64,000 bases of DNA from Eledone cirrhosa (Eukaryota): assembly GCA_964016885.1 (NCBI GenBank), contig OZ024740.1, positions 220,596,001 through 220,660,000 on the forward strand, written 5' to 3'. A model generated the notes under the pieces. It saw nothing but the letters and a program-made list of their open reading frames with translations, was not told where the DNA came from and ran no database searches. A program made the translations under genes and the position numbers. Numbering within the stretch: position 1 is the first letter of the stretch; every line of letters starts with the position of its first letter. Below, piece after piece: positions 6,913-36,698 of this stretch.

Positions 6913-7649
6913 ATGCGTTCCAGTTACCGAATTCATCCTAGAGATGATATGGACAGACCCCTTGATTCCAGAATGATACAATCTACTTATAATATGTCAG
7001 AAAGTAAATATTTAGAAAAAGAGCGACCTAAACCATTATTTCAAAGGGATCACATGAAAGAAAAGTATACGTATCCTGTTAAATATCCACCAATGACAGT
7101 TAAAATCGTCAGGGACCCTGCTGAAGTGAGCTCCAACCTAGAAAAGGTATCTTTGAAAGTAGCTCTGAGAAAGATACAGAATTACTTATGTGATAAAGAA
7201 TTTACATTCAATACAGCCATTATGTGTCTTGATCAATCACTTCATGTTACACATTGCCCTTTCTTCTTGGATTACAGTGTGAGAAAAGGCTACGTTAAAG
7301 AGGGTGTCCTGAAATTTGGGAATTTAATCATTGGTTATGGAAAATCTCCTGATGAAGAAGAAACTCAAAAGCTGGCATACATTGATGCTTTGAGAGCCTT
7401 AAAATTTAAGTCAGTTGAAGAAATCCTGAATAGAAATGAAATCAATGAACCAACATCACCACCACCAAGAACACCACCACCACTTGCATTACCAGTGAGA
7501 GAAAAAACTTTGTCCGAACTTATTATCATAGAAAAAGATGAGTTTGCAGTAGATCGTTTCAAATATTCAGTTTCTATACTTCACAACAGTGTGTTAGCTA
7601 ATAAGATGCACATAAAGTGGGATTATAATCCTGGACCAACTGGATGCAA
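6913..7649 (+). CDS. NKRF-like: Exon 1 (first visible coding exon) of divergent NKRF-like dsRBD/R3H protein
   Basis: Polypyrimidine tract and AG at 6909-6910, ATG 6913, GT donor at 7650 (phase 2). Encodes one dsRBD-like fold (AIMCLDQS...GNLIIGYGKS...QKLAYIDALRAL) and the start of a second (LIIIE...SVSILHNSVLANKMHIKWDY), resembling NKRF NAIGILNNSASFNKMSIEY. An upstream coding exon cannot be excluded. Confidence 0.8.
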
Positions 7650-8380
7650 GTAAGACATATTTATAAAAATATCAATTTGTATATGCAAGGGAAATGACTG
7701 CATGTGTGTGTGAAAATATGCTGCATGATGTTGTTATATAACAGTGGAAGACACCTAAAGCAGGCAGATATTGGAAAAATGTGATGAGGACATATCTCAG
7801 GATGATGTTCTCATGGATATGATAACATTTCCCCCAAAATCTTTCAACAATTGCATTACTCATACATATATTTTACAATCACCATCACCCTAACTTTAAT
7901 AAGACATTACTGCTTTCATTATAGGAGAGTGACAAGACGCTAGTAGAAGGAGGAGGAATGTGAGAGTGTATGTATGTGTGTAGCAATAAAAATGATGCAA
8001 ATTTAAATTTAACTAAATTTGCATTGTTAAACTGGAAGGAAACATTCATATCGAAATTGAACAGTAGATGATGGTTGGAAAATTAGAGAAAATATAGGGC
8101 TATTCAGGTAGTCCATTTTTAAATGTGTGTAGTTTCTTAGTTGAAATAGCAGCCATTGTTCTTTGGTATCCACTTTTCTATGCTGGCATGGGTTGGATGA
8201 GATTTTTTTGCATCTATTTGACTGAAGCAATGTGAAATGAAGTGTTTTACTCAAGAACATGTGTCACCCAGTCCAAAAATAGAACCAGTGACACTAGTGT
8301 CATCCCAACACACTATCCGGTGGACTGCAAACCTTCACACACACACACACACGCACGCACACACACTCTCTCTCTCTCTC

Positions 8381-8444
8381 TAGTGATGCTTCAGTAATGA
8401 CTTGGTCTATGTACATAGACCAAGTCATTACTGAAGCGTCACTA
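8381..8444. repeat. 64-bp spacerless palindrome
   Basis: tagtgatgcttcagtaatgacttggtctatgt-acatagaccaagtcattactgaagcgtcacta, one mismatch. Confidence 0.95.
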
Positions 8445-9009
8445 CTAATCTTCCAGAGAGGCCAGCGGGCCTGTGTTTCACTTACATACAGTCTCCTATT
8501 CTATTAAGTGCACAGGAAGGGTTGTCATGTCTTTGACACATTTGAAGGGTCCCCCCAACTCTTTGTTTGGCAAGTTTCCTATGGCTTGATACCCTTCTTA
8601 TCACCAACCACTTTAGAACACATACTGGGTGCTTTTATTGTGTAGATCACTAACACTAGGGAGGTTGTCATATACTTGGCACAACGCTTTGCTTAGCTAT
8701 CTTTCAATGGCCACTTTACCATGTGTACAGGGTGTGTTTTTCATGTAGATCACCAACATTACAGCGGTTGTTGGGACATTGACACAACTGAAGAGTCCTC
8801 GCAGCCCTTTTAGGCATGGTTTCTACAGCGAGTTGCCCTTGTCGCCAACCACCTTATTGACTTTCTTCCATTAATCCCTCTTGTATCACCCAATTTCTCT
8901 CATCTTTCTCTGCCACTCTCTAGTCATACTTTGTCATGTTTACTTTCAATGGACAACAACAGCATAGAGGACTACTATTTTAACACGTTCTAATATATAC
9001 ATATGTTTA

Positions 9010-9042
<33 letters not shown>

Positions 9043-9445
9043 AGAGTAAAGACCCCATTTGGTCACATGTGACCATGGGATTTACACCTAGAAAGGTGCC
9101 CTCTGAGGCACAAGTCCGTATATATATTATATATATATATATATATATAGTAAAGAGTTGAAAATGCAATTGGAGTCTTTAAGAAGACTTATTTATAATA
9201 ACTTTACCAGTGTCACAGTTTTGTGATTTTCAAAAGTTAAATGAGATGGAGAGATGTGTGGCTATGCCTGTGTCTCACATGTGAGACACATCACAGTGTA
9301 GCTATATATATATATACACACACACACCATGTTCATGATGGGTTTTGTAGTTTCCATTTACCAATTTTACTTTTAAGATTTATTGATTATATTACCTAAA
9401 TAATATAAAATTTATTTCAAGTTGTATAATTTATACCATTTTCAG

Positions 9446-9572
9446 GGTGAATGTATATATACAAGATAAACGTGTTGGAACTGGAGAAGGAACTGGAAGA
9501 CCGGAAGCTAAGAAAAATGCTGCTTGTGATGCACTTTTCAACTTTTTTTATAAGAATTGTGTCATCCTTCAG
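9446..9572 (+). CDS. NKRF-like: Exon 2 of NKRF-like gene (completes second dsRBD-like fold)
   Basis: AG 9444-9445, GT 9573-9574; phase matches exon 1 (AA+G = Lys); encodes VNVYIQDKRVGTGEGTGRPEAKKNAACDAL, the dsRBD GxG..KxxAxxxAAxxAL pattern. Confidence 0.85.
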
Positions 9573-10949
9573 GTAATACATTATTTATTACTAGTTTATC
9601 CTTTTTGTTACTATATTACTAATGAAAGACAAATGCCTATCATTTTGAAATCATATTTTGAAAATAATCAAAGAATTTTGAGGGATTTAGTGAAAAGATC
9701 TCTTTATTTATCTGGTGTTTGTAACATAACTTAACCCATTAGCATTTATATTGCTCTATATATACTATTGTATTTTTATGGTAAATACTTTATCTTACAT
9801 AATTATCTCACATAATTTTGAATCTACGAGATTTTGATGTTATTTATTTTGGGAGCAGTACCTTAACATCAGTATGAACAACCGATTTGAACAGAACGAG
9901 GTGTGAGAATTCTGGCCAGATATGACTGGTTTAAACCATTGTTAAGTTATGTTTCAAACACTGGATAAATAAGAAAGTTAATTATATTACTATATCCTTT
10001 CAAACTTATTCGAAAATCTTATTAGAAATATGGTAATGTTGTTTGTCATAAATACTGTGTAACTTCACATTTAATTAGAATAATCACAATCATTGCCAGG
10101 GCAGTCTAGCAAATTCCCAGAACCACAGATATCATAGCAATGTGTTTTTATACCTGAAATAAACAGATTGACTTGTGCTTTTAAAACACCATGTCCCGCC
10201 GTGGTCAACTTTGCATTTCACCTTACGGGGTCAATAAAATGAAGCACCAGTAATTCACTGGGATAATTGTTGGCCTTGTGCCAAAAGTAGAAACAATTAA
10301 ATGTAGCAGCTAATGGGGTTAGGATTACAACTGGCTTATAGAACACTATGTACTTGTGGAAGACATTTTTATTATTGTATGAGATATCATCAACATAGAT
10401 TTGTTTACAACACTTATTTTCATATAGAGTGAATATTGATATGACCAACTTGTTCTATATACTTGTTTGTGTGTATATGTGCATTAAAGCCCAAAGCAAG
10501 GTTTTGTATATAAGTTGGATGCTGCTTTTCATACCCACTTTTTTTAGTAAAATACTGCAATTTATTTATGATTATAAACAGTACATTTCACATCTGATCT
10601 TTGGTCTATTTCTGCATGAGCTGACAGCTTGTCTGTCGTGTATTTTCATCAATGCCAAAATTAGTGCTACTATCTATATTGCTTACACGAACTAGTGTAT
10701 TAGAATGAGCATAGGATTTTTTTCGTGCTTTGTAGGGATTTCATAACTATCATAATCTCTATTTTAAAATCTTGCTATGCTAGCATTATTAGTTACACAA
10801 ATTCAGAGCATTGTTTTCTAGCTACTGCACTTAAACTTGATTTACCACCAGCATATATTTATTTCACTTGGGTATTAACTTATTTTCTGTTGTAACTAGT
10901 GTTTTGAATAGACTTTGATTTTCAGATCATAGTGTGAAAAAGAAAAAAT

Positions 10950-11260
10950 GCTGCATGGCTGAATAGTTAAGAAGTTTGCTCAACAATTATGAGTTTTGGG
11001 GTTTGGTCCCACTGTATGGTATCTTGGGCAAGTGTCCTCTACCTGAGCTTTGTGAATAAAATTTGTTAGGCAGAAACTGTTTGGACTGTACCTGTAGTTC
11101 AAAGGGCCAACCATGTCACATATTGAGTTATGCAGAATCTCCTTGTGAATTACGTTAAAAATACACATATCTTTGGAATACTCAGCCAAATACATGTTAA
11201 TTTAACAGCAGGCCATTTTCTTGACAGAACAACTAGAGCACTCATTGCTGAAACTAATAT
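10950..11260 (+). mobile_element. Decayed tRNA/CORE-type SINE (related copies near 2960-3110, 13000-13160, 13405-13710, 41700-41970)
   Basis: A-box-like tggctgaatagttaag, B-box-like ggtttggtccc, CORE-like cttgggcaagtgtc. Confidence 0.6.
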
Positions 11261-11353
11261 AGGTCCATTTATCTTGTCTTGTATATTTTGAATCAGAATT
11301 TTGTAGGTCCATCAGATAAGTGACATAGTGGTTTTTCACATATACACAAATAT

Positions 11354-11386
<33 letters not shown>

Positions 11387-13186
11387 ATTGCCGTGGTTTG
11401 ATTGGTCTATGCGGGTAAGGTGGTTTGTGGCGATGGCGGGGAGGGAGATAGTGAGGTAACTGAATTAGAGTCTTAACTGAACTTATAACAGGGGACACGA
11501 AGTAGGGTAAATATAATGTCTATCTACCTATGCTCTCTTCCTATCTTATAAGACATTAGTTTAGTTCAAGCCAACATTTCATTTCAATCCGTTTCTCTCA
11601 CACATGAATTCAAGTATTTAAAGATCTTTTATCTCCTCCATCATTCGATGACTGTTTGTATTAACAAGCTTTGAAATTTTTTTGCCATGTTGTTACATGT
11701 CTCCTGTTATAGGTTCGGTTACCTCACTCAATACATATATACCTTGGCTCATTGTTCGTAACAATAACACTGCTATTATTGTGGAGGTGGGTGCTCGCTA
11801 ACTCTATCTGAAATAAAGAAGGTTCGCATGTTCGCCTGGTTACATGTGGACTCATATTCATATTTTGGGTTGCTCCATCATAGCACCCCTCCCCCCCAAA
11901 AAATCACCTCCAGTTCTGTATGAGCAAGATACAATCACCTGATCTGATTTGTCACATAATGGGTCAACTAGTCTAACCCATGCTAGTGTGGGAAAATGGA
12001 TGTTAAACGGTGGTGACGATGATATAACACACACAGAGACCATATGTTCTCATGTATAAGTTAAACTGGTAGATAAATCAAACCTTTATTTTACATACAG
12101 CAGTTACAATGTACTTGATATTTTGAATTGAGGTTTTGTATATCCAACAGATAAGTCACATGTTCGTTTTTCATGTATTTTCATGAGAAAAGCTGTGACT
12201 TATACATGAGTATTTATTGTAATCATTATAATGTTATTTCCCTTTCATCGTTTTGAGTTTGATAAAGTACCAATCCAAGGCAGTGAATTGGAAGAATTGT
12301 GGAAGTGTTCAGGTGTCTTATGGTATTTATTCTGGCTCTGTGCATTTCTGAGTTCAATCCTGCCTCCTGTCATCAGAAAAAACTTGACATGACATGACTG
12401 GGGCCCCATCTCATTAAAACACCCAAAATAATTCCTATGAGATGCAAACCCATAAGTTGCCAGCTAAAGCCATGCAGGTTATAAGCCATAATGAGAAATC
12501 ATTATACAGCTGATTAGTGCAGTTATTGTTGCTATAGGGAACTTAATTTTATATTATATTAGATTTATGTGCAATTTGTAAACTTTTTTAAATGCACGAT
12601 TTATGAACATTGTGTTAAAAGGAGTTCAGAAATGTTTTGTCTTATGGGGATGGTTCCAGGAAGGGCATTTGGCTGTAAAACATTGCTTCTAAAAGGACTC
12701 CATGATGTGTGTGAAGTCTGTCGTGAGGCTTTAATTGGGTAAATAGTCTTAAAATACTTGTTATTTTAACATGAGGTTTATAAAGTATATATCATCATCA
12801 TCATCATCATCATCATCATCGTTTTTACGTTCACTTTTCCTGCTAGCATGGCTTTGATGAAACTTTTGGGGTTAGTTTTGTTAATATTACTTGTTCTTTG
12901 TCCAATCACTATGCTGCAGGACATATTGTTTACATCGACATGAACAAACAACAATGCTTGCTTTAAACATCAATATGAAGAGGTATGTAATAAACTGACA
13001 TACAATGGGCTTCTTTACATTTTCTGCCCTTCAGATTCATTTACAAGGCATTGGTTGGTCCAAAGGTATAGTAGATGACACTTGCTCAAGTTGTGCAATG
13101 AAATTGAATCAGAACCATGTGGTTGCAAAGTGAACTTCTTAATCACACAGCCGTGTCGGCACCTGTTATTTGGTTTATAAAGTATA

Positions 13187-13393
13187 TTAACCCTTTTCAT
13201 ACGAACCCATTTGAAACCATCCCTAGTTCTATGATACTTAACTGTTATATAGTGTTTATATTTATCTAAAAATCATTCATCATAACGAGAAAGTTTATAT
13301 TACAAAGTTTTTCCAAATTCTTGATTATTTTCAAAATCATTTGAAAATCATAGGCAGTGTTTTACATTAGAAATATGATAATGAAAGAGCTAA
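13187..13393. mobile_element. MITE with TTAA-CCCTT termini, piggyBac-like (related copies about 24535-24776, 24821-25080)
   Basis: ttaacccttt...aaagagctaa ends; internal sequence matches 24821-24900 in inverted orientation. Confidence 0.55.
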
Positions 13394-15129
13394 CCCTTCT
13401 GTTAAGATGCGTGGCTTGGTGATTAGAGAGTTGGATTCACAATTATTAGGTTGTAAGTTTGATTCTTGAACCAGGTGATGCATTGTGTCCTTGAGCAAGA
13501 CATCTTACCTTATTTCACGTTACTCAACTATAGAAATGAGTTGTGATGTCACTGGTGCCAAGTTGTATTGGCCTTCACCTTTCTTTTCAACAACATAAGT
13601 GGCATGGAGACGGAAGGCGGATATGCATGGGCGATTTGCCAGGGCTTATACCTTGGGGGGGAACTTTCTAGGTACAAAACCTTTGGTCATTTGTGACTGA
13701 AGGGAGTCTTCTGCAACACTTCTGTTACTAACCACGTCATAACTGGCTCTAGTTCTATGAAACAAAGTCACACATTTTAAAGCCTTTAAAATGTGTGACT
13801 TTGGGTAAATAGTCTTTATATTAAAATGCCCCTACATAAATTTATATAAGAACCATATGCCAAGTTATCTTAGTAATGAAATAATCGTTTTAATAAATCC
13901 ATTAATTGAAATTGTGTATTTCATTAGAAATATGGATAATTCATTGTATATTGAATATTCTGTCTTGATGCATATATGAAAGAACACAATTTTTGGTGTG
14001 TCCCCTGACATGGTTGTTGTGGATATGTATAGCTGAAGTGGACATAATTTTCGAAAAAAAAAAAAACAAATAAAACTTTACATTGGCTAGCAGTAGATGT
14101 TTCCTGGGAATCTTTTAATTGATGAATCTTTATTGGTTTAAGTTCTATTTCTGCCAAGGTCAGCTGCGTCTTTTGGGGTCGGTGGAATCATTTGAATACT
14201 GGATAAGCTGCCATGAGGTACTTGTTCCAGCTCTTTGCATTCTGAGTTCATATTTTGTTGCAGGCTACTTGGCTGGAAGACTTAATCCATCACTGGCTTA
14301 ATGCAACCACCTGGCACCTTGGATGTTTTTAGCAGTACACACTCTGTCCAAAAGCATTTGGACCAAGTCTCTAGTTTGAGATACTTACCCCCCTTCCTCT
14401 TATCAGTTAAAGGCCCCAAGGATCAGTGGTACTACCCTTCCTTTCTTGACTAAACACTAAAAAACAAACAGAAATCAAATAATATATAATTCTTGTATTT
14501 TTCTCCAGTGAAATATTGACTACCATTTCTTAATGAAATCTTTGCTGTGTGTATTAGGTTCAGTATAGGTATACCATATTTCTACATGTCATAAGAAGCA
14601 GTTAAAGGGTTTGGCATCAGGAAGGGTATTCTGTTACAAAATATTACCTGAAAAAGTACCCCATGATGAGCATAAAACTTTTCATGGGATCCGCAAGGCT
14701 ATAGCCTGCTTTAGCAAGGAAAGAAGGCCTTAAAACATTGCATTTCTTAATGAGTGTTTCAAGAAATGCCATATCAACATTTTAGTGCTTTCTTGATACA
14801 GGTATGTCTTTTGTCTTATTTTTTTCCACAAGAATGTATTTAATATTTCAGTTACAGAAATATTGTATAGCTGAGCTCTTGCCAAAACTAAGGCAATTGT
14901 GAATGAGACTATGTAAGTCCTTGAACTCTTGTGTTTTCTTATGTAAAACTCATAAAATTAACTATTCTATCTATAATGTTTAAAATGGTTGGGCAGATCA
15001 TGAAGAAACTGTTATTTATCTTAATTGAAACAGCCACAATATAAAGGAATGATGTGTGTATGTAAGTGTCTACTGATTTGCCTATCCATAGCAACATTCC
15101 TCCACATGTAGTGCTACCCTCTATCACTT

Positions 15130-16185
15130 CCATGTGATGCACTTGTATTTAGAGGGTTTTGAGGCCTCTCCTAAACGTGCAATTGATACTCGACCAGGTG
15201 CAGGTCATCCTTAAGGCAGATGCTCTTATCCTTGGGTCACTGATCTTCCCCCCCAGCCATCCGAATGGCCCTTGCATCCAAGCTTCATCAGCTTGAAATT
15301 CTCACGAACAGACTGCATCTGATTAATGCTCTCTTCCTTTTGAGGAACTGCCTTCACATCCCAAAGATTTTGTATACCTTTCGCAGTGCCCTTTGTTACA
15401 GCAGCCATGCAACATCTGGTTTGATGGCACTTGATAGCAACAAGCCATCTTTATCATTAGATACAATGGCTTTGGTCTTCAGTTCTCGGTTTCATTCACA
15501 TTGGCATATCTTATGTACTGGTTTCCTGTTGTGCCCTTATGAACAAGGTTCTCCACAACAGATCAAAGCCTACTATAATACTTGGGGCAGCTTACTTGGC
15601 CAGAATTCTGTGGATATTGAATTTCCCAGCTGGACAGTGACTTGCCTTTGTATTGGTGTTTCCCTGAAGTTCTGTCTCTGGATCAGTGAGCTAATGCTGT
15701 TGAGGGTCCACGGTCTTTCCTCATTTTCATACTGCGTCAGTGCTGGTCACTTAAGACACACCACTGTCGATGAGTCTGTTAAACATGGTTTAGACATAGC
15801 TGGCTTCTCATTACAGTTTGAACAAGTGTGGTTAGACTGAGTGGACAGCAAAAGACAATCTTCCTGGTCTGCAGTGATAAGCTCCTAATCTGGGATGTGA
15901 CATGCAGTGATTCGTTCTTCTGCAGCAAAGTTGTGAATTCAGCGGGATACTCAGGTTTTGTTGTCTGGCAAGCTGGGTATTGCAAGTTGTTGAAGTATTG
16001 TCTTTCCAATAGCTGGAAACGTCTGGCATCCTGGGCACCCAAACAAAGTTCCTACTTACTGTGATCCGGACAAAGTTGGCCACCTGCAAGAATGAGCCAC
16101 TCAAACTGGACTGGCTGTTTTAGAGGATCTAATCTTTCTTGCTATCCTCCGGGTAATGCCTTAACAATTCTGTCAGCTGTGACAG
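15130..16185 (+). mobile_element. CRE-like non-LTR retrotransposon fragment (RT end plus restriction-like endonuclease), decayed
   Basis: ALFLLRNCL.IPK.LY, HGLS..C.SAG..RH, LIWDVTC.D, LET.G.LG and GNA..IL motifs across frames. Confidence 0.7.
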
Positions 16186-16515
16186 CATCCAGCTGCAGAA
16201 ACCATGCCAAATATGAAATGCATGAGCAAGATGAGGTCTCTTACCCATTTAGTCTCAGACTTCGACAGCCTGTCCAACCCTTACCAGCATGGAAATCAGA
16301 CATAAAATGATGGTGAGAAATCATCACACTAAATTTTCCTTTTGGAGCATGTGGAGAATTGTTTCCATAGATAGTCAACTTGATAGGCACACAAAAAATT
16401 TCTCTAATCAATATTGGAGAAAGTGCCAACCCCCTCCTGAAAAACCTCTTGATTCATGCCTACTTATGTGTGCGTGTATTACATATATATTTTATATATT
16501 TTTTTTATACATCAG

Positions 16516-17508
16516 ATTGCTTCAGATGTTGAAAGTAATATCATGATTCCTTACACGAATGTGATGTATTTTGTTAATGAAGTTAAAAGAAGAAAAATAT
16601 CTTATCCCAAGGATATTCCTGCCCGTAATGGTCCTTTTGCTATTGTAATAGAAAACCTGCTCGACTCCTACACATGGACTGCGGTGAATAACCAACTTGT
16701 ATTTGGCCCTGGGATAGTTGATGACGAGGCTGAAACTCTTAGAATTATTGGTGAGAGAAGAAACTTAATTGTTCGGAAAAAGAAATACAATGATGGCTTT
16801 ATCTACTGTTTACGTAGTGTGAAAGATTTTAGTGAAATCATAAAATATCTTCATGAGAATGGTGGAGCTAGTGGTAGATATCGCCTTGTTCCAAAATCAG
16901 AGATACCTGAGTTAAAAGCTATAAGACAGCAATATTATCAACAATATAGAATGTCTAGTCAAATAAAGGTAGATGAGAATGAAAGGCCAGGTTCTTATGG
17001 AAATATTGGTGATTCCAGCACAAACATGAATCAAGATTCTTATGATTTTCAAGGAGGTTATAACTATTCTGACAATAATAGAGAATATGACTCCAACTTT
17101 GTCAATCCTCCAAATTTTCCCCAGTCAAACATTAATTTGGAAGAACCTCAACAGATTCCAAATGTTGATAATACTCAATACATGAATTCAAATTCTAGTT
17201 ATTACGATAGGAACTATGCTTCAAATCCTTATGAAAGAGAAACAAATGTTCATAATCAGATGAACTCTGATGTAAATATGAATCGTAATGAAGGACCAAT
17301 GTATTCTTATAATCAAAGACCTGCACTAGGGGAAGAAGATAGATATAATTCTATGAATAACCAAGGTAATTCTTATCCGGCACAAAGTGGTTTTAATCAG
17401 AGGTCTTATGATTCAGATTATAACCCAACAGGAGACACAAATACTTATTCGGGATATTACGGAAACAATTTTGATTCAACAACTGGTAACAATAATGAAG
17501 GTTTTTCT

Positions 17509-17539
<31 letters not shown>

Positions 17540-18792
17540 GCAATAATAATAATAGAGCTTCGTGTTCTACTGGGTCTTATGAGAATTATCATTCAAGAGC
17601 TGTTTATGAATATGATAATGTTCATAAAACTGACTTTAATTCGTCGTCAATGTATAATTCTCGTGATACCACTGCTGCACCAAAAGAGCAAACTGGTTAT
17701 AATCAGGATTATTGTGCAAGAAACCCAGTTCAGAATTATGGCCAGGAATATCCCTATTCAACTGGTCAACACAACACACCTTATATGTATGAACAAGGAA
17801 ATCAAATGAACAAAAGAGAAGAAATGTTTGATAATAGAAATTCTCATCCAATGTCTGGAAGAGAATTCAACGACAACTCTGGCTTTCAAAATAAACTGAT
17901 GGGACAAAACCAACGTCCTGATTCATCTTTTAACCAAATTGGTAATCAAAATAGTAGTAGTTTTAAGGTAAAAAGGCCCGGTTTAGGACGTATGTTTGGT
18001 AATGCCAAAGCAAAAGCTTACGAAAAAGAATTGAAAATCAGAAAAGTTGCAATAAATATTGGTAACAATAGATCTAGAGGGAAATCTTCAAAACGTTGGA
18101 CAACATCAACTAATAGCAAAGTCTCTGGAAATGCATCTACATCTGCAGCACAATATCGCAGCATGCGAAGTTTGGCAGCCAAAGTAAATGCTAGAGCTTC
18201 ATCAAAGAATTTGACCCCTCTTATGAGTATGGAACAAACAACAAACAACAACCAAGTAATGCTTCTAAAATTGCTTACCAAGAAAATTGCTCAGAGAGCT
18301 TTACAAAGCAATGTCAAAAACATAATTGCAAATGCAACACGGTTATCGAATATTGCTAAGTCACGTCAACTAATGGAACGGTCTACAGCTCAGCTGCTTT
18401 CTGTTCCTAAGAAAAGAACCAGAAGGTCAAAACGCAAACCTGATGTAGCTAAAACTCCAAACAGTGGAACAGCCAAGCAAACTCCAAGAAGCGGTACAGC
18501 TAAGCAAACTCCAAGAAGCGGTACAGCCCAACAAACTCCAAGAAGCGGTACAGCCCAGCAAACTCCAAGAAGCGGTACAGCCAAGCAAACTCCCAAAAGC
18601 GGTACAGCCAAGCAAACTCCCAAAAACGGAACAGCCAAGCAAACTCCAAAAACTGGTACAGCCAAGCAAACTCCAAAAATTGGTATAGCCAAACAAACTC
18701 CAAAAAGCGGAACAGTCAAGCAAACTCCAAACACAACAAAAAACACAAAAGTCAAGGGAGCATATTTACCCCTACAAAAATTGAAGAAATAA
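16516..18792 (+). CDS. NKRF-like: Terminal exon A of NKRF-like gene: R3H-like domain, N/Y-rich low-complexity region, basic tail with TP repeats
   Basis: AG 16514-16515, phase 0 matching exon 2; 758-aa open frame; IENLLDSY..LVFGPGI.DDE..L..IG and IIKYLHENGGASGRYRLVP resemble the NKRF R3H domain and C-terminus. Confidence 0.8.
18454..18729 (+). repeat. Coding 27-bp minisatellite, 10 units encoding TP(R/K)SGTA(K/Q)Q
   Basis: Direct reading: actccaagaagcggtacagccaagcaa and variants, in frame in exon A. Confidence 0.97.
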
Positions 18793-18831
18793 TTTAATTC
18801 CTCTTTCAAATGTTCCTGTATTCAATATTTC

Positions 18832-18837
18832 AATAAA
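18832..18837 (+). terminator. Candidate polyadenylation signal AATAAA of terminal exon A
   Basis: AATAAA about 40 nt after the stop, T-rich downstream, conserved in copy B. Confidence 0.6.
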
Positions 18838-19226
18838 TGTTCATGTCTTAAAAAGTATCTCATTTTTGTCAACTTCTTAACACTTCGAACCTGCTGGCCC
18901 AGTACTCAGTTCTGCTGCACACTTCTGTTAATTAGTTGACACCACTTTCTGCATGAGTCAGTGACCATAATACATCATTTCTTTAGACTGTGTTCTTAGG
19001 AATACATTGTCGTGATGTTTTTCAAGTTTCTACATTTATCCTTGTTACAATTGAATTATCAAATAGCAGTTTATGTTGATTTTCGTGTGGACAGCCAGTG
19101 TTGAGGACTGCAAACACAGCAAGGAGTCTGGGTTTAAGGGGTTTAAGTTTATTGTTTGGCTGTTCTATTTTCCTTTACAAGGGAGAAACTGATACTGCAA
19201 TATTTTTACTCTCTCCTCACAGTAAA

Positions 19227-19264
<38 letters not shown>

Positions 19265-27109: not shown

Positions 27110-27965
27110 AAGCTCTGTAAGCATCTGATATACATGAGGTGTATCTAGGGGCGAAAATTAACCTCACAGAGGCTGGTACCAGAACAATTAAAGTGTTCAA
27201 ATGTGGCAAAGTCTCTGGTGAGGATGAAATTCATCTCGACATATTAAAACTCGTGAATTGAGAATATATGTTGTGGCTGTTTCATGTATGCCAGGTGGTC
27301 TGGATCTCTGGAAGGGCGCCAAGGCAATGGCAATTGGGAGTAATTATCCCAATTTTTAAAAGTGGAAACAAGAGATTCCTCTAATTATAGAAGAATCTCT
27401 TTGTCAAACCTCCTCCATAAAGTTTATGCTAAATGTCTTTCACCACTAACATAGCATAGCTGACCAAATATTCACTCTGCGGTAGGTCTTGGAAATATTG
27501 TCAAGCAGTATATGCTTGTTTTGTGGACATTGAAAAAACATACACCTACATGCCACAGGATTCGTTGTGGAAGGTTCTGCAGGAGTATGGGATAGATGGA
27601 CAGCTTCTCATTGCCTTGAAGTTCTTGTATGAATGCCTAGTATTTGCATTCGATAAATGGTTCTACATCAAAGCCATTCAATGTGGATACCTGCCAAGGT
27701 ACCCACTTCTGTTCATAATCTTTATGAATAGGATTGACATGTGCAACCAGACTTGTGGTGATATTAAAACCAGTAGGTGTAAGATCAGTCAACTGGCTTC
27801 TTTAGATGATGTGGTGCTATTGAACTTGTCAGATGATCTCCAACATGCACTGGATAGGTTTGTTGCATGACGAATGAAAATCAGTGGTGCGAAGGCCGAG
27901 ATATTCATCTTCTTGGGAATGCCTGTGCAGTGCACCTTGCATGTGAGTGGAGTTCAAGTATTTTA
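27110..27965 (+). mobile_element. RTE family 2 RT fragment
   Basis: FVDIEK.Y, LWKVLQEYGIDGQLL, PLLFIIFM, LAS.DD motifs with stops. Confidence 0.8.
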
Positions 27966-28729
27966 GCGGGAAGGCTTAATCCATCACTTGGTTTAACGCA
28001 ACCACCTGGCATTCGGATGTTTTTAGGAGAACACACATTGTTAAAATGCATTTGGACCAAGTTTCTAGTTTGAGGATACTTGCTTCCCTTCTTGACTAAA
28101 CACTAAAAAACAAACAGAAATCAAATAATATATAATTCCTGTACTTTTCTCCATTTAAATATTGACTACCATTTCTTAATGTCATGTCAAAAGAGGCAGC
28201 TAAAGAATTTGGTGCCAGAAAGGGCATTCTGCTGTAAAATAGCTGAAAAAGTACCCCATGATAAGCATGAAACTTTTCATGGGGTCCGCAAGGCTAAAGC
28301 TTGCTTTAGCAAGGAAAGAAGGCCTTAAAACATTGCATTTCTTAATGAGTGTCTCAAGAAATGTCATATCAACATTTTAGTGCATTCTTGATACAGGTAT
28401 GTTTTTTGTCTTATTTTTCTCCACAAGAATGTATTTGATATTTCAGTTACAGAAATACAGCTGAGCTCTTGCCAAAACTAAGGCAATTGGGAATGCTGTG
28501 TTTTCTTATGTAAGACTCATAAAATTAACTATTCTATCTATAATGTTTAAAATGGTTGGGCAGATCTTGAAGAAACTGTTATTTATCTTAATTGAAACAG
28601 CCACAATATATAGGAATGATGTGTGTATGTAAGTGTCTACTGATTTGCCTATCCATAGCAACATTCCTCCACATGTAGTGCTACCCTCTATCACTTCCAT
28701 GTGATGCACTTGTATTTAGAGGGTTTTGA

Positions 28730-29790
28730 GGCCTCTCCTAAACGTGCAATTGATACTGAACCAGGTGCAGGTCATCCTGAAGGCAGATGCTCTTATCCTT
28801 GTGTCACTGATCTTCCATCCGAATGGCCCTTGCATCCAAGCTTCATCAGCTTAAAACTCATGAACAGACTGCATCTGATTAATGCTCTCTTCCTTTTGAG
28901 GAACTGCCTCGCCATCCCAAAGTTTTTGTATACCTTTCACAGTGCCCTTTGTTACAGCAGCCATACACCTTGCCTCATTGATCTTGATATTTGCAACCAG
29001 TGTGGTGCAGAGGAAATATGCACATCTGGTTTGATGGCACTTGATAGCAACAAGCCATCTTTATCATTAGATACAATGGCTTTGGTCTTCAGTTCTCGGT
29101 TTCATTCACATTGGCATATCTTATGTCACTGGTTGTGCCCTTATGAACAAGGTTTTCCACAACACATCAGAGCCTACTATAATACTTGGGGCAGCTTACT
29201 TGGCCAGAATTCTGTGGATGTTGAATTTCCCAGCTGGAGAGTGACTTGCCTTTGTATTGGTGTTTCCCTGAAGTTCTGTCTCTGGATCAGTGAGCTAATA
29301 CTGTTGAGGGTCCATGGTCTTTCCTCATTTTCATACTGCGTCAGTGCTGGTCACTTATGACACACCACTGTCGATGAGTCTGTTAAACATGGTTTAGACA
29401 TAGCTGGCTTCTCATTACAGTTTGAACAAGTGTGGTTAGACTGAGTGGACAGCAAAAGACAATCTTCCTGGTCTGCAGTGATAAGCCCCTAATCTGGGAT
29501 GTGACATGCAGTGATTCGTTCTTCTGCAGCAAAGTTGTGAATTCAGTGGGAGACTCAGGTTTTGTTGTCTGGCAAGCTGGGTATTGCAAGTTGTTGAAGT
29601 ATCGTCTTTCCAATGGCTGGAAACTTCTGGCATCCTGGGCACCCAAACAAAGTTCCTACTTACTGTGATCAGGACAGTTGGCCACCTGCAAGAATGAGCC
29701 ACACAAACTGGACTGGCTGTTTTAGTGGATCTAATCTTTCTTGCTATCCTCCAGGTAATGCCTTTACAATTCTGTCTGCTGTGACTATGT
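28730..29790 (+). mobile_element. CRE-like non-LTR fragment, duplicate of 15130-16185
   Basis: Near-identical to the copy A fragment. Confidence 0.7.
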
Positions 29791-30457
29791 GGTAACAGCC
29801 TGTGGTTTTGCACTTTCAAGAGATAGAATGAGCAAACAAATGAGTATAACATCCTTTCATTGGTTGTTTTGTGCTGTTACCATTAGTCACTATATACATT
29901 CATACATACACTTGACAAACACAGGGTTATTAACTGTAACATGTTTATTAAAGTATAAACAACTCAATGTTACTGATGTTATATATCTTGTATTGAGTAA
30001 GATAAATAAAGCTGTATTGTTTGCCACACACAATAAAATGTACTTGGTACACTCTCTAAAGTGTTAGTGCTTGTGGCATAATAAAATACATCCAGAACAC
30101 TCTGTAAGGTTGTTGGCATTAAGAAGGGCATCCAACTACAGAAACCATGCCAAATATGGAATGTATGAGCAAGATGAGGTCTCTTACTCATTTAGTCTCA
30201 GACTTCGACAGCCTGTCCAATCCTTACCAGCATGGAAATCAGACATAAAATGATGGTGAGAAATCATCACACTAAATTTTCCTTTTGGAGCATGTGGAGA
30301 ATTGTTTCCATAGATAGTCAACTTGATAGGCACACAAAAAATTTCTCTAATCAATATTGGAGAAAGTGCCATCCCCCTCCTGAAAAACCTCTTGATTCAT
30401 GCCTACTTATGTGTGCGTGTATTATATATATATTTTATATATTTTTTTATACATCAG

Positions 30458-31864
30458 ATTGCTTCAGAAGTTGCAAGTGATATCATGATTCCTTACTCGA
30501 ATGTGATGTATCTTGTTGATGAAGTTAAAAGAAGAAAATTATCTTATCCGAAGGATGTTCCTGCTGGTAACGGTCCTTTTGTTACTGTAATAGAAAACTT
30601 GCTTGACAACTACTCATGGAGTGCTGTGAATAACGAACTTGTATTTGGGCCTGGAATAACTGTTGATCAGGCTGCAATCCTTAGAGTTATTGGTGAGAAG
30701 AGATACTTAGTTCTTCGGAAAAAGAAATACAAAAATGGATTTGTCTACTGTTTACGTACTGGTGAAATTTTTAGTGACATCGTAAAATATCTTCAAGAGA
30801 ATGGTGGAGCTAGTGGTAAATATCGCCTTGTTCCAAAATCAGAGGTACTTGAATTAAATGTTATGGAACAGAAATTATTTCAGGAGAATATCCAATTTTC
30901 TGGCCGTATAAAGGCAGATGTGAATGAAAGGCCAAGTTATGGAAATATTGGTGATTCTAGCACTAACAGGAATCAAGATTCTTATGAATTTCAAGGTTAC
31001 AACTATTCTGACAATAATAGAGAATATGACTCCAACTTTGTCAATCCTCCAAATTTTCCCAAGTCAAACATTAATTTGCAAGAACCTCAACAGATTCCAA
31101 ATGTTGATAATACTCAATACAAGAATTCAAATTCTAGTTATTACGATAGGAACTATGCTTCAAATCCTTATGAAAGAGAAACAAATGTTCGTAATCAGAT
31201 GAGCTCTGATGTAAATATGAATCGTAATGAAGGACCAATGTATTCTTATAATCAAAGACCTGCACTAGGTGAAGAAGGTAGATATAATTCTATGAATAAC
31301 CAAGGTAATTCTTATCCGGCACAAAGTGGTTTTAATCAGAGGTCTTATGATTCAGATTATAACCCAAAAGGAGACACAAATACTTATTCGGGGCATTACA
31401 GAAACAATTTTGATTCAACAACTGGTAAAAATATGGAAGGTTTTTCTCATAATAATAATAATAACAATAATAATAATAATAGAGCTTCGTGTTCTACTGG
31501 GTCTTATGAGAATTATCATTCAAGAGCTGTTTATGAATATGATAATGTTCATAAAACTGACTTTAATTCGTCGTCAATGTATAATTCTCGTGATACCACT
31601 GCTGCACCAAAAGAGCAAACTGGTTATAATCAGGATTATTGTGCAAGAAACCCAGTTCAGAATTATGGCCAGGAATATCCCTATTCAACTGGTCAACACA
31701 ACACACCTTATATGTATGAACAAGGAAATCAAATGAACAAAAGAGAAGAAATGTTTGATAATAGAAATTCTCATCCAATGTCTGGAAGAGAATTCAACGA
31801 CAACCCTGTCTTTCAAAATAAACTGATGGGACAAAACCAACGTCCTAATACATATTTTAACTAA
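30458..31864 (+). CDS. NKRF-like: Duplicated terminal exon B (candidate alternative last exon or partial paralog), 468 aa, truncated before the basic tail
   Basis: Same phase-0 acceptor context (AG 30456-30457); open frame with only in-frame indels versus exon A until a CAA>TAA stop at 31862-31864. Confidence 0.6.
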   Translation: MASEVASDIMIPYSNVMYLVDEVKRRKLSYPKDVPAGNGPFVTVIENLLDNYSWSAVNNELVFGPGITVDQAAILRVIGEKRYLVLRKKKYKNGFVYCLRTGEIFSDIVKYLQENGGASGKYRLVPKSEVLELNVMEQKLFQENIQFSGRIKADVNERPSYGNIGDSSTNRNQDSYEFQGYNYSDNNREYDSNFVNPPNFPKSNINLQEPQQIPNVDNTQYKNSNSSYYDRNYASNPYERETNVRNQMSSDVNMNRNEGPMYSYNQRPALGEEGRYNSMNNQGNSYPAQSGFNQRSYDSDYNPKGDTNTYSGHYRNNFDSTTGKNMEGFSHNNNNNNNNNNRASCSTGSYENYHSRAVYEYDNVHKTDFNSSSMYNSRDTTAAPKEQTGYNQDYCARNPVQNYGQEYPYSTGQHNTPYMYEQGNQMNKREEMFDNRNSHPMSGREFNDNPVFQNKLMGQNQRPNTYFN

Positions 31865-32480
31865 ATTGATAATAAAAATGTTAGTAGTAGTTTTAAGGTA
31901 AAAATACCTGATTTAGTACATATGTTTCGTAATGCCAAAAACAAGGAAAGCTTATGAAAAGGAATTGAAAATCAGAAACACTGCAATAAATATTGGTAAC
32001 AATAGATCTAGAGGGAAAACTTCTTTAAAAGTTGGACACCATCAACACTCTCTGGAAATGCATCTACATCTGCAGCACAATATCGCAGCATGCGAAGTTG
32101 ACAGCCAAAGTAAACGTTGGAGCTTCATCAAAGAATTTGACGCCTCTTATGAGTATCGATCAAGCAACAAACAACAACAAAGTAATGCTTCTAAACTTGC
32201 TTACCAAGAACATTGCTCAGAGAGCTTTACAAAGCAATGTCAAAAACATAATTGCAAATGCAACACAGTTATCGAATATTGCTAAGTCACGTCAACTAAT
32301 GGAATGGTTAACAGCTCAGCTGCTTTCTGTTCCTAGGAAAGGAACCAGAAGGTCAAAACACATCAGAAGTAGCTAAAACTGAAAAAGCTCCAAACAATGG
32401 AACAGCCAAGCAAATTCCAAACAACAAAAAACACCAAAATCTAGGGAGCAAATTTACTCCTACAAAAATTGAAGAAATAA
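31865..32480 (+). pseudogene. Decayed remnant of the basic C-terminal coding region of exon B
   Basis: Aligns by eye to 17938-18792 but with several frameshifts; holds only about one unit of the 27-bp repeat (about 32388-32422). Confidence 0.85.
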
Positions 32481-32519
32481 TTTAATTCCTCTTTCAAATG
32501 TTCCTGTATTCAATATTTC

Positions 32520-32525
32520 AATAAA
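32520..32525 (+). terminator. Candidate polyadenylation signal AATAAA of exon B
   Basis: Same context as 18832-18837. Confidence 0.5.
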
Positions 32526-32937
32526 TGTTCATGTCTTAAAAAGTATCTCATTTTTGTCAACTTCTTAACACTTCGAACCTGCTGGCCCAGTACTCAGTTC
32601 TGCTGCACACTTCTGTTAATAAGTTGACACCACTTTCTGCATGAGTCAGTGACCATAATACATCATTTCTTTAGACTGTGTTCCTCAGGAATACATTGTC
32701 GTGATGTTTTTCAAGTTTCTACATTTATCTTTGTTACAATTGAATTACGAAATACCATTTTATGTTGAGATTCTCGTGTGGACAGCCAGTGTTGAGGACT
32801 GCAAACATGGCAAGGATCTGGGTTTAAGGGGTTATAAGTTCATTGTTTGGCTGTTCTATTTTCCTTTACAAAGGAGAGAACTGATACAGCAATATTTTTT
32901 ACTCTCTTCTCACAGTAAACTAATATATATATATATA

Positions 32938-33126
32938 TAATAGGAAAAAGTATGACCTCGACGGCAGAGCTCAAGCCGTTTCAACGGGTAGTCCAGAAAT
33001 AGCCGTTGAAACGGCTTGAGCTCTGCCGTCGGGGTCATACTTTTTCCTATTACCCACTCTACTACCCTAAGTATTGAGTACTCTGATGTGTTATGGTCCA
33101 TCTGGTTCCTTACCACAACTCCTTCG

Positions 33127-34193: not shown

Positions 34194-36698
34194 TTCTTCT
34201 TTGTCCACTTATTCCTGAGAGCGTCATGGGGGAAGAGTTCTCAAACACTCCCTCCACCCGATCTGGTTGGATCCCCAAGCATGACCAGCCAAGATCATGG
34301 ATGTTATCCAAGCATCTCGGTCTGGGTCTCTTGCCAGTTGGCTTAGCCCATAAAATCTGTCCAACGTTTCTTTCCTGAGACATTCTAACCACATGCCCAT
34401 AGTATTGGAGCTGTGGTCTTTCAATTCGGAGAAGTAGCAGCTCAACCTGAATTGTCTCTCTGATGTCTGAGCTATGCACTCTATCAAGTAACGTTACTCC
34501 AAAGACCCTTCAGAGGTATCCGATGTCGTCTGCTGGTATTTGCAATTGTATTTTTTCGGTCATTACGCAAGATTCGTGACCATAGGTAAGGGTTGGCATG
34601 AAAACTGGTTTGAAGATAGTGAGTTTGGCTTTTACGCTATATACTTCTGATTATTGAATGCTGAAGCTGGCACATTACTGCACCAGCTTTTGCATTTCTT
34701 GCACTTAATTCAGCCTCCTGCCTTCCATCACTTGTGAACACGGCCCCGAGAAACTTGAACTTCTCTACCTGCTTCAGTGGAACTCCATTCAAATGTAAAG
34801 TGCACTGTGCAGGCTTCTTTGAGAGGACGAATGTCTCAGTTTTTGTAGCACTGATTTTCATTCCAGTCATGTATTACTTGGCATCAAACATATCAAGTGC
34901 AAGTCGAAGATCATCTTCTGTTGAGTTAAGTAGTACAATGTCGTCTTCAAATTCCAGCCGACTGATTTTAAACCTGCCAGTCATACCACTTCCAACCTGA
35001 CTGCGAATGTCAATCCTGTTCATGTAAATAATGAACAGAAGTGACAGTATGCACCTTTGGCGGAGTCCGACTCACATTGAATGGTTTTGATTTAGCACTG
35101 TTTATCTGAACACAAATACTTGGGCATTCATATAGAGACATCAGAGCAACAAGAAGCTGACCATCAATCCCATACTCCTGCACGGCTTTCCACAGCAGGT
35201 CTTGAGGAATGCAGCCATATGCCTTCTCAAGGTTGACAAAACAAGAATATACTTCTTGGCAATACTCCCACGATTTCTCGAATACCTGCTGCAGTGTGAA
35301 TATTTGGTTGGCTATACTGCGTCTGGGGATAAAACCACACTGTTCATCAGCTAGCTTGGAGTCAACAATCTCCCTACATCTCTTTGCCAGGCACTTAGCA
35401 TAGACTTTACCGGGGAAGCTTAACAAGGAGATCCCTCTGTAATTGGAACAATCTCTCTTGTCTCCCTTTTTGAAAATTGGGATTATCACTCCCGATTGCC
35501 ATTGCTTAGGTGCCTTCCAGAGATCCAGGCCACCTGGCACACACAAGTTAGCCAGAGAATACCTTCTCTATTTAAGGCTTTTACCATCTCGGACCAGATT
35601 TCATCTTTCCCAGCGGCTTTGCCACATTTGAGATCTTTAACTGTTCTTGCGTTCTCAGCCTCTGAGAGATTAGTCACCGTTCCCAGATGCACCTCGTGTA
35701 CATCCAAATATGCTGTTGTGATCGGGTTTAGGAGATCAGCAAAATATTCTCTCCACCTCGCGAAGATGCATCTCTCTGAAGAGAGGAGAACCCCAGATGC
35801 ATTCTTGATAGCAGGTGTGGAGAAGAGCTTCTTATTACAAAGTTGGCGGATGGTCTGCCAGAACAGTTTATTTGCTGATCTGAAGTCGGATTCCAGCTTA
35901 ACGCCAAAGTCCTCCCATGTCTTAACTTTGGATGCTTTTATGTCTCTACTGCGGTTTTTCGTGCCTCCTTGTACGGCAGGTGCAAGAAGAATGAATTATT
36001 TCCAAGCCAAGCATTGTAAGCCTCCTCCTTTGCTCAGATGGATTTTTTGACCGCTTGATTGAACCAAGGAGTCTTCCTGCCATTTGGCACCACACCAAGC
36101 CTCTTTTGCCCACAGCATTTAACAGCTGAAGCAGAATCTGCTACGCTGAACAATCTCCACTCCATCTCAACATCCTCAGTTTGCTCAGGGAGTTCTCTGA
36201 ATTTGGATGTAATAGTATTTGCATACCTGGTTCTGACTTCTCTATTCACCAATGCTTCCCACTTTATCCTGTAGGTCGCTCTGGACCTGCCAGTTTTGTG
36301 GGCTTCATTAGCTTTAGGTAGTCTCAAGCTGCAGATGACTAGATGGTGATCAGTTGACAGCTCAGCCCCTCTCTTAACATGAACATCCAGTACAGAATCA
36401 AAGATATGAGAGAGAATTACAAAATCAATTATTGATATCTGTCCCTGATTTCCCTTATACCATGTATATTTATGGATCTCTCTGTGCTGGAAAGTGTTCA
36501 TAATAAAGAGTCCATTGCTAGAACAGTGGCGGTGCAATTTTATGCACCAAACAAGAAATCCGAATACAGTCCTTGATGAAGTCACTGCAGTGTTAGATGT
36601 AGTTGGGAGAGTCATATATCCTGATGGGAGACTTCAATACACTGACCACATGACATGGAAAGGAGTGATTGGAAGGAATGGCGACCCTGATCTAAAAT
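34194..36698 (-). mobile_element. RTE LINE (family 2), APE plus RT, with 5' inversion and TSD
   Basis: APE (NTF.H..IHKYTW, STDHHLV) and RT (NYRGISLLS, EQCGF, F.FLG) motifs; inverted APE piece about 36530-36698; CCTGTTATC at 34185-34193 and 36699-36707. Confidence 0.9.

Follow-up and report, generated by a model that had tools for sequence, protein, structure and literature searches.

A probable cephalopod paralog of NKRF lacking the XTBD and G-patch modules in Eledone cirrhosa

What does the nucleic-acid-binding scaffold of an enzyme adaptor do when the modules that hold its enzymes are gone? The question is raised by a locus of Eledone cirrhosa that lies in a stretch of 64,000 nucleotides (nt) on contig OZ024740.1 (positions 220,596,001 to 220,660,000), hereafter the window. 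Between positions 6913 and 18792 of the window, a three-exon gene encodes a predicted protein of 1046 residues with two folds of the dsRBD type (a domain that binds double-stranded RNA), a region homologous to the R3H domain of NKRF, and a long low-complexity tail. NKRF is portrayed as an adaptor whose XTBD holds XRN2 and whose G-patch switches on DHX15 (PMC5435916, PMC7054742, PMC7132122), and the window locus can be viewed as a natural dissection of that adaptor. In our assessment it is probably a cephalopod NKRF paralog that lacks both modules and that likely works as a non-enzymatic RNA-binding scaffold. Because the XTBD and the G-patch are both absent, we infer that it neither recruits XRN2 nor activates DHX15. 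Architecturally it stands as a new variant within the NKRF family.

Gene model and cephalopod orthologs

The coding sequence is assembled from three exons:

6913..7649, plus strand: exon 1, 737 nt, residues 1-245 plus 2 nt, an open frame closed by a GTAAGA donor; it holds an N-terminal region with a conserved YPxxYPPM motif, the dsRBD1-like fold, a proline-rich linker and the first half of dsRBD2
9446..9572, plus strand: exon 2, 127 nt, with AG and GTAAT borders; the rest of dsRBD2
16516..18792, plus strand: exon 3, 2277 nt, residues 289-1046 plus the stop, with a CATCAG acceptor and a 779-codon open frame

All three exons have canonical borders (acceptors end in CAG, donors begin with GTAAG or GTAAT), and splicing keeps the phase (737 + 127 + 2277 nt give 3141 nt, that is, 1046 codons plus the stop). 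Exon 1 occurs as a single copy in the genome. Orthologs from Argonauta (P0001) and Octopus vulgaris (P0004), together with RefSeq models from O. sinensis and O. bimaculoides, were mapped onto the window by tblastn and alignment; the proteins fall in order on the three blocks, and no residue is left unplaced where exon 2 meets exon 3. They range from 907 to 1074 residues across Argonauta and the three Octopus species, and all share the junction ILQ/IAS or ILQ/VAS. P0001 corresponds to Argonauta hians LOC115217295 (907 residues, 55% identical over exon 1), and RefSeq isoforms from both O. sinensis and O. bimaculoides fall in the 90% cluster of P0004. Identity to the Argonauta and Octopus orthologs is 52-60% over exon 1, and exon 2 is 68% identical to O. 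vulgaris (tblastn). A preliminary description, made from the letters of the window alone, had already joined three phase-compatible exons into 1046 residues, and the borders, the phase and the shared exon 2/exon 3 junction of the orthologs agree with it.

An exon upstream of position 6913 may exist, since a good acceptor (T10CATCAG) immediately abuts the ATG at 6913 and isoform X1 of Octopus has an N-terminus longer by 61 residues. A tblastn search of the window for a coding exon matching these 61 residues returned none (best E 0.2).

The reach of the family among known proteins is narrow. Among 1.84 billion representative proteins, three matched exon 1 at E <=0.001: Argonauta P0001, the 262-residue exon-1-like fragment P0002 (28%), and a repeat protein whose match is confined to the proline-rich linker. 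The lineage-specific character proposed in the preliminary description fits this result. A word-index search with P0001 recovered three proteins among 3964 candidates, namely P0001 itself, O. vulgaris P0004, and P0005. Residues 1-200 of exon 3 yielded zero proteins at E <=0.01 among 388 candidates in the same kind of search, which we regard as a sensitivity miss because later searches recovered the orthologs. Against the sequences of the PDB, phmmer searches with exon 1, the first 195 residues of exon 3, and P0001 gave chance-level rows only, and the family profile picked up one dsRBD at E 0.18. In the libraries searched, no literature was found that connects NKRF with cephalopods or cites either of the two LOC identifiers.

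Relationship to NKRF and the missing modules

A separate canonical NKRF, which the preliminary description had suggested looking for, is present in the same genome on another contig (G000:C19:5412887-5414938) as an uninterrupted open frame of 684 residues. Its Pfam matches, two dsrm among them, all lie above their cut-offs (XTBD, E 7e-21; G-patch, 1.2e-9; dsrm, 1e-8; R3H, 1.1e-8). With the NKRF of O. vulgaris it shares 82% identity, and its profile matches the G-patch chain of human NKRF (6sh6_B) at 1.7e-13. A search of the genome with full-length NKRF did not recover the window, but it used a stricter first pass and is no evidence either way.

The structured part of the window protein is laid out as follows:

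7138..7422, plus strand: dsRBD1-like fold, residues about 76-170, placed by an AlphaFold2 (AF2) model of the Argonauta ortholog, Foldseek and a weak hhalign match (E 0.011)
7504..7649, plus strand: first part of dsRBD2 (helix 1, strand 1), split by an intron (hhalign E 1.6e-6)
9446..9572, plus strand: remainder of dsRBD2 (strands 2-3, helix 2), exon 2, with a sub-threshold Pfam dsrm match
16516..16635, plus strand: linker of 40 residues at the position of the NKRF G-patch, sharing IPxxNV only with the start of that G-patch
16636..16896, plus strand: R3H homolog and C-terminal GGxxxKYxLxP block (hhalign E 1.7e-8)

Profile-to-profile comparison ties this layout to NKRF. When paralog B, a second gene of the family treated below, was included in the family profile, hhalign aligned it to cephalopod NKRF with a score of 103.3 (E 4.7e-13, probability 97.9%), and 30 shuffles scored 12.7-23.1. 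The alignment spans 305 columns, pairing window residues 102-417 with NKRF 293-679, and takes in both dsRBDs and the R3H/C-terminal block in order. Without paralog B, residues 1-430 of the spliced family scored 74.1 against five cephalopod NKRFs (E 5e-9), with 40 column shuffles at 12-25 and a reversed alignment at 15.5. Taken one at a time, the domains find their own counterparts: dsRBD1 aligns weakly to NKRF dsRBD1, dsRBD2 to NKRF 439-498, and the R3H/C-terminus to NKRF 590-679. The NKRF stretch opposite the window R3H homolog is itself a Pfam R3H match (35.3 bits), and the GGxxxKYxLxP block after it is common to both proteins. Single-sequence comparison reaches less far; when the spliced window protein was compared with canonical NKRF by BLASTP, the R3H/C-terminal block alone aligned (E 0.004), and the scaffold is about 18-19% identical to NKRF. 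The window gene is 55.6% identical to its O. vulgaris ortholog, compared with 82% for NKRF, and the family evolves faster than NKRF. The profile matches to NKRF, to both dsRBDs and to the R3H block bear out the NKRF-like assignment of the preliminary description, dsRBD1 being the weak member.

Window protein and NKRF share two dsRBD folds followed by an R3H-homologous domain and the GGxxxKYxLxP block. They differ in that the window gene has neither XTBD nor G-patch, reads A-x3-R in place of R-x3-H, adds 624 C-terminal residues, and is divided into three coding exons, whereas NKRF is one uninterrupted open frame.

The loss of the G-patch was followed at several levels. Pfam scans of the translated exons, taken as far as E 10, showed no G-patch. 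In a six-frame genome search with PF01585, none of the 13 matches (among 29 candidates) lay in the window. A hidden Markov model (HMM) of the G-patch of cephalopod NKRFs gave a best E of 4.6 over the 3318 stop-to-stop frames of the window and, since it came back empty, no hidden G-patch exon is expected within the 64 kb. The preliminary description had named an extra G-patch exon between 9572 and 16516 as a finding that would overturn it; the orthologs have no extra exon there and no frame of the window carries a G-patch, so the absence that it reported stands.

The XTBD is lost along with the G-patch, which goes beyond what the preliminary description had claimed. Exon 1 contains no Pfam match to it at E up to 10, and a six-frame genome search with PF11952 gave two matches among eight candidates, on C19 and C13, and 0/2 in the window. 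The match on C13 (G000:C13:543031-543225) is the sole other XTBD exon in the genome and probably belongs to a CDKN2AIP or CDKN2AIPNL ortholog.

In PMC7132122 the NKRF G-patch is described as binding DHX15 and tethering two DHX15 domains, and stimulation of DHX15 needs both the brace-helix (L559) and the brace-loop (L591). Recruitment of XRN2 by NKRF is described in PMC5435916 and PMC7054742. In the window gene, the hhalign gap coincides exactly with the glycine-rich core of the NKRF G-patch. The possibility that the 40-residue linker is a relic of the brace-helix was considered and dropped: the linker by itself aligned at E 0.3 and in the wrong place, despite the shared IPxxNV.

Paralog B was found with a genome search using the structured part of exon 3, as a weak match 178 Mb away on the same contig:

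G000:C1:398866958-398876482: paralog B; its large exon encodes three dsRBDs above the Pfam cut-off (E 1.5e-14) and begins a fourth, and a 124-nt exon and an R3H-like terminal exon follow

Both of its 3' introns sit at the positions and phases of the window gene. Its protein matches the window protein by blastp at 6e-17 and matches NKRF directly at two domains, 1.75e-5 for the R3H and 2.5e-5 for a dsRBD. Like the window gene, paralog B has a split last dsRBD, a small exon and an R3H-like terminal exon, and has no recognisable G-patch and no XTBD. It differs in carrying three further Pfam-passing dsRBDs, in reading R-x3-T, in keeping a degenerate segment of 55 residues at the G-patch position, and in ending 60 residues past the R3H-like domain. 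The low-complexity region lies downstream in the window gene, whereas in paralog B it is upstream or N-terminal; an open frame of 336 codons rich in N/S/G/Y and RGG lies just upstream of paralog B. In a protein atlas, the last exon of paralog B falls nearest three R3H clusters (0.84-0.86), which we take as a lead only. Judged by these sequence features, the window gene is one of a small cephalopod family with paralog B as its sister, and not a one-off. Across the three genes the G-patch appears to decay stepwise, from the full stretch of 53 residues in NKRF, through the full-length but degenerate segment of paralog B, to a stretch 24 residues shorter in the window family.

Elsewhere on the same contig, around G000:C1:266757859-266758197, we noted a minus-strand open frame (1036-2622 in local numbering) whose 528 codons include one Pfam dsrm match (E 2.9e-8) and more dsRBD-like units, to which P0002 matches weakly (E 1.8e-5).

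RNA-binding folds and the C-terminal tail

For the dsRBD folds, the Argonauta ortholog stood in for the window protein: its 378 structured residues were modelled with AF2 (mean predicted local distance difference test, pLDDT, 67.8). The model contains two alpha-beta-beta-beta-alpha domains at pLDDT 75-91, the first with an additional helix in front (alpha-alpha-beta-beta-beta-alpha, pLDDT 81-88). Foldseek returned 15 matches at E <=0.001, led by tandem-dsRBD proteins (TARBP2 at 2.1e-6, R2D2, DGCR8 and TRBP). The matches listed are dsRBD-containing chains, and single dsRBDs superpose on the model at a root-mean-square deviation of 1.5-1.9 A. Structurally, the block of two dsRBDs is best matched by TRBP/TARBP2, R2D2, Loquacious, DGCR8 and Staufen (Foldseek E 2e-6 to 1e-3), and the window protein resembles these cofactors in having no catalytic domain. 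It differs from them in that no relationship is detected at the sequence level and in that the cofactors have neither an R3H-like domain nor a low-complexity tail.

The two domains differ in the residues that would touch RNA. The dsRBD contact motifs KKxAK and GPxH are defined in PMC11309768. Read from the alignments, dsRBD2 of the window protein has R-P-E-A-K at the KKxAK position and N-P-G-P-T-G in the beta1-beta2 loop, and may still bind double-stranded RNA. At the same position dsRBD1 has P-D-E-E-E, with zero basic residues, where NKRF has K-R-A-A-K; on this reading dsRBD1 probably does not bind double-stranded RNA.

The R3H signature is given in PMC7708074 as a conserved Arg and His three residues apart, both in the helix between strands 1 and 2. 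The fold itself is a sheet of three strands with one helix at its N-terminus and another linking strands 1 and 2. In the profile alignment the corresponding window residues are A360 and R364 (NKRF ...QERAIMHKEA... over window ...DEAETLRIIG...), in agreement with the A-x3-R reading made earlier from the letters; the positions are V and K in the orthologs and R and T in paralog B. An AF2 model of the first 195 residues of window exon 3 has a topology that fits the R3H type, alpha-beta-alpha-beta-beta-alpha (H40-56, E60-63, H69-81, E84-91, E94-101). Because the structure searches with this model were weak, as detailed below, the statement that the R3H is kept relies on homology to the R3H stretch of NKRF itself and not on a fold search. 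Of the earlier proposal that the dsRBD folds and the R3H are kept, the dsRBD folds stand, by way of the ortholog model, and so does an R3H-homologous domain; the R3H motif is lost and the R3H fold is weakly supported.

The end of NKRF aligns near window residue 422, and 624 residues follow it, close to the roughly 630 extra residues, N/Y/S/Q-rich and then K/R-rich, given in the preliminary description. Their composition is likewise confirmed:

16918..18051, plus strand: N/S/Y/Q/G-rich low-complexity region, residues 423-800, recognised by composition, a tandem repeat and pLDDT <50
18052..18789, plus strand: basic tail, residues 801-1046, K+R 21% and D+E 1%
18253..18366, plus strand: best-conserved tail motif, MLLKLLTKKIAQRALQSNVKNIIANATRLSNIAK, from per-25-residue conservation and alignment
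18452..18731, plus strand: 27-nt tandem repeat of 10.4 copies encoding GTAKQTP(K/R)S units

Residues 423-800 comprise N 18.5%, S 10.8%, Y 9.5%, Q 7.4% and G 6.9% (NQSYG together 53%), with a run of poly-N where the (ATA)15 microsatellite lies (17510-17554), and the AF2 pLDDT of exon 3 falls below 50 from exon residue 143 onward. The region thus has the composition of a prion-like domain over a long stretch of predicted disorder. K/R clusters, KKRTRRSKRK among them, occur in the basic tail. Its best-conserved motif occupies residues 870-900, with the block 876-900 conserved at 84%. The motif matches no Pfam family; DUF3860 appears at E 0.051 in P0001.

From these features a division of labour can be proposed. 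Most of the RNA contact would be supplied by dsRBD2, with its R-P-E-A-K, and by the basic tail; dsRBD1, with its P-D-E-E-E, would serve as a protein-contact module; and the 380 N/S/Y/Q-rich residues would favour self-association. The protein would act as an RNA-binding scaffold, probably a self-associating one. Uncoupling from DHX15 and condensate formation, both put forward in the preliminary description, likewise stand at the level of inference.

The same features could be read as those of a natural competitor of NKRF, one that occupies the same structured pre-rRNA sites without XRN2 or DHX15 and so damps or times NKRF-dependent nucleolar processing. The retained part is precisely the RNA-binding scaffold, aligned in order with NKRF, both enzyme-recruiting modules are gone, and the tail has K/R clusters. 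The scaffold is nevertheless only about 18-19% identical to NKRF, and RNA targets shared with NKRF are not expected, as both the R3H signature and dsRBD1's basic residues are altered. We consider direct competition with NKRF improbable.

A wider reading takes the window gene and paralog B together. Tentatively, and with a low expectation that all of it holds, a cephalopod NKRF-derived family may have shed the XTBD, the G-patch and the R3H signature and gained prion-like or RGG-type domains, becoming lineage-specific condensate scaffolds that bind double-stranded RNA. Such scaffolds could sequester or present structured nuclear RNA, for example the duplexes on which the heavy A-to-I editing of cephalopod transcripts draws, and might also serve as a built-in NKRF antagonist in pre-rRNA processing. 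In the same reading, the duplicated last exon of the window gene, described in the next section, would be the source of two isoforms whose R3H-like domains have diverged, one with the basic tail and one lacking it.

What the locus offers is a conserved, apparently expressed paralog family that retains the nucleic-acid-binding scaffold alone and adds low-complexity tails, which allows one to ask what a dsRBD-R3H scaffold does by itself. It also provides a family for a set of unnamed cephalopod "DRBM domain-containing" proteins. Its significance is moderate and for specialists unless the gene turns out to act in RNA editing or in control of the nucleolus.

The duplicated last exon and the evidence against an NKRF-derived scaffold

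The window contains a second copy of the last exon:

27963..32939, plus strand: tandem duplicate of 14269-19246, 85-94% nt identity (window self-blastn)
30458..31867, plus strand: exon 3 copy 2, acceptor intact, 469 codons open, then a stop where copy 1 has Q

The two exon 3 copies are 91% identical, and no second exon 1 or exon 2 was found. Within the first 1.4 kb the indels between the copies are all multiples of three (5/5). Past its stop, copy 2 has frame-shifting indels, and 234 nt of the 27-nt repeat are absent from it. At the 40 structured positions where the copies differ, copy 1 keeps the ortholog state at 9 and copy 2 at 16.

None of the read runs available for the window is recorded as RNA. 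Runs X1, X3 and X4 are even over introns and exons, as DNA would be. In X2, by contrast, the depth jumps from 10.3 to 56.8 at 16506-16532, the exon 3 acceptor, while it is 1.0-1.8 over exon 1 and 4.3 in the bin holding exon 2. Contigs of X2 that match copy 1 exactly lie at 16513-17091 and 18349-18800 (depths 57 and 135), and contigs of depth 125-277 have the letters of copy 2 at 24 of 25 variant places. Since contigs of each copy occur at high depth, both exon 3 copies appear to be expressed in X2, copy 2 at a depth equal to or above that of copy 1. A 595-nt contig of X2 aligns to 16513-17091 from its 17th letter and, allowing for the ambiguous CAG, begins 19 nt before exon 3. If both exon 3 copies share one upstream exon, this overhang of 19 nt would be the fork distance in a 31-mer graph.

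Several results weigh against the view that the window gene is an NKRF-derived scaffold. In single-sequence Pfam scans there was no R3H, G-patch or XTBD, and dsrm was detected only at 18.4-20 bits, below its cut-off of 23 bits (exon 2, 18.4, E 0.0032; P0013, 18.4; P0001, 20.0; P0002, 19.2). The Pfam R3H model (PF01424) gave no match, even at E 10, to exon 3 or its first 195 residues alone, to copy 2, to P0001 or P0013, or to the last exon of paralog B. The AF2 model of the first 195 residues of exon 3 is of low confidence (mean pLDDT 57, core 70-87), and Foldseek found no match to it at E <=0.001. A VIA structure search of 48,161 chains gave a best Z of 6.0, with none reaching Z 8; four of the top ten are titled R3H domains (Z 5.4-5.9), level with unrelated small alpha/beta folds. 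The rank-1 chain presumably carries an R3H domain as well, which extends the R3H range to Z 5.4-6.0. When the unspliced pieces were aligned instead of the spliced family, hhalign gave a weaker result, with the R3H block only (probability 34%, E 4.3e-4). In the runs covered, no read or contig links exons 1, 2 and 3 in E. cirrhosa. There are also signs of relaxed constraint in E. cirrhosa. Between the exon 3 copies, the ratio of non-synonymous to synonymous substitution (dN/dS) comes to 0.79 in total and to 0.95 within the first 140 codons. In a small tree of the structured block, the window branch measures 0.58, where the other orthologs have 0.006-0.07 and the species' own NKRF has 0.

The profile and fold results among these bear on whether the gene derives from NKRF at all. 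It might instead be an independent tandem-dsRBD protein, for example of the CDKN2AIP/CARF lineage or some other dsRNA-binding protein, whose C-terminal domain is merely R3H-like. Pfam detects weak dsrm matches only, Foldseek does not confirm the R3H, and the protein atlas places the Argonauta ortholog nearest a mollusc cluster in which 56% of members have dsrm and 24% DSRM_CARF (score 0.85, again a lead only). Among the XTBD proteins CDKN2AIP/CARF, CDKN2AIPNL and PAXT-1, CARF is similar to the window protein in having a dsRBD, there combined with an XRN2-binding domain, whereas the window gene has no XTBD. CARF is not known to have an R3H-type C-terminal domain. Set against an independent origin are the three domains that align in order with their own NKRF counterparts, the GGxxxKYxLxP block that follows the R3H in both proteins, the direct matches of paralog B to NKRF at two separate domains, and the position of its last exon beside R3H clusters in the atlas. 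On these comparisons with NKRF, an origin outside NKRF appears to us very unlikely.

The substitution rates point to another possibility, that the gene is drifting to loss in E. cirrhosa. The copies would have become near-neutral after the duplication of the last exon, and the 1046-codon frame would be a survivor and not a working product. The high dN/dS, which approaches one in the 140 structured codons, the stop and frame-shifting indels of copy 2, the long window branch, and the poorer retention of ortholog states by copy 1 than by copy 2 are all as expected of such drift. On the other hand, 758 codons are still open in copy 1, every indel of the first 1.4 kb preserves the frame, the motif at residues 870-900 is 84% conserved, and X2 covers both copies at 57-277x, compared with about 10x in the adjoining intron. 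We judge decay of the gene to be quite improbable, and a retained NKRF-derived scaffold remains the reading that we prefer.

Mobile elements occur elsewhere in the window:

482-1762, 46973-47977, 62960-63988 and 35010-35567, minus strand: non-LTR retrotransposon fragments, reverse transcriptase at E 1e-10 to 6e-27
57431-61697, plus strand: broken Helitron, with Helitron_like_N (E 7e-27), PIF1 helicase (E 1e-40) and a Pif1 2B domain in different frames

Copies of the non-LTR element are 76-87% alike, and a PHD finger follows the reverse transcriptase in two of the four fragments scanned. Intron 2 of the window gene contains very high-copy repeats at 9687-10720 and 13306-13822, where the summed contig depth in the DNA runs reaches up to 300,000 and the read tables hold many repeat-to-repeat joints.

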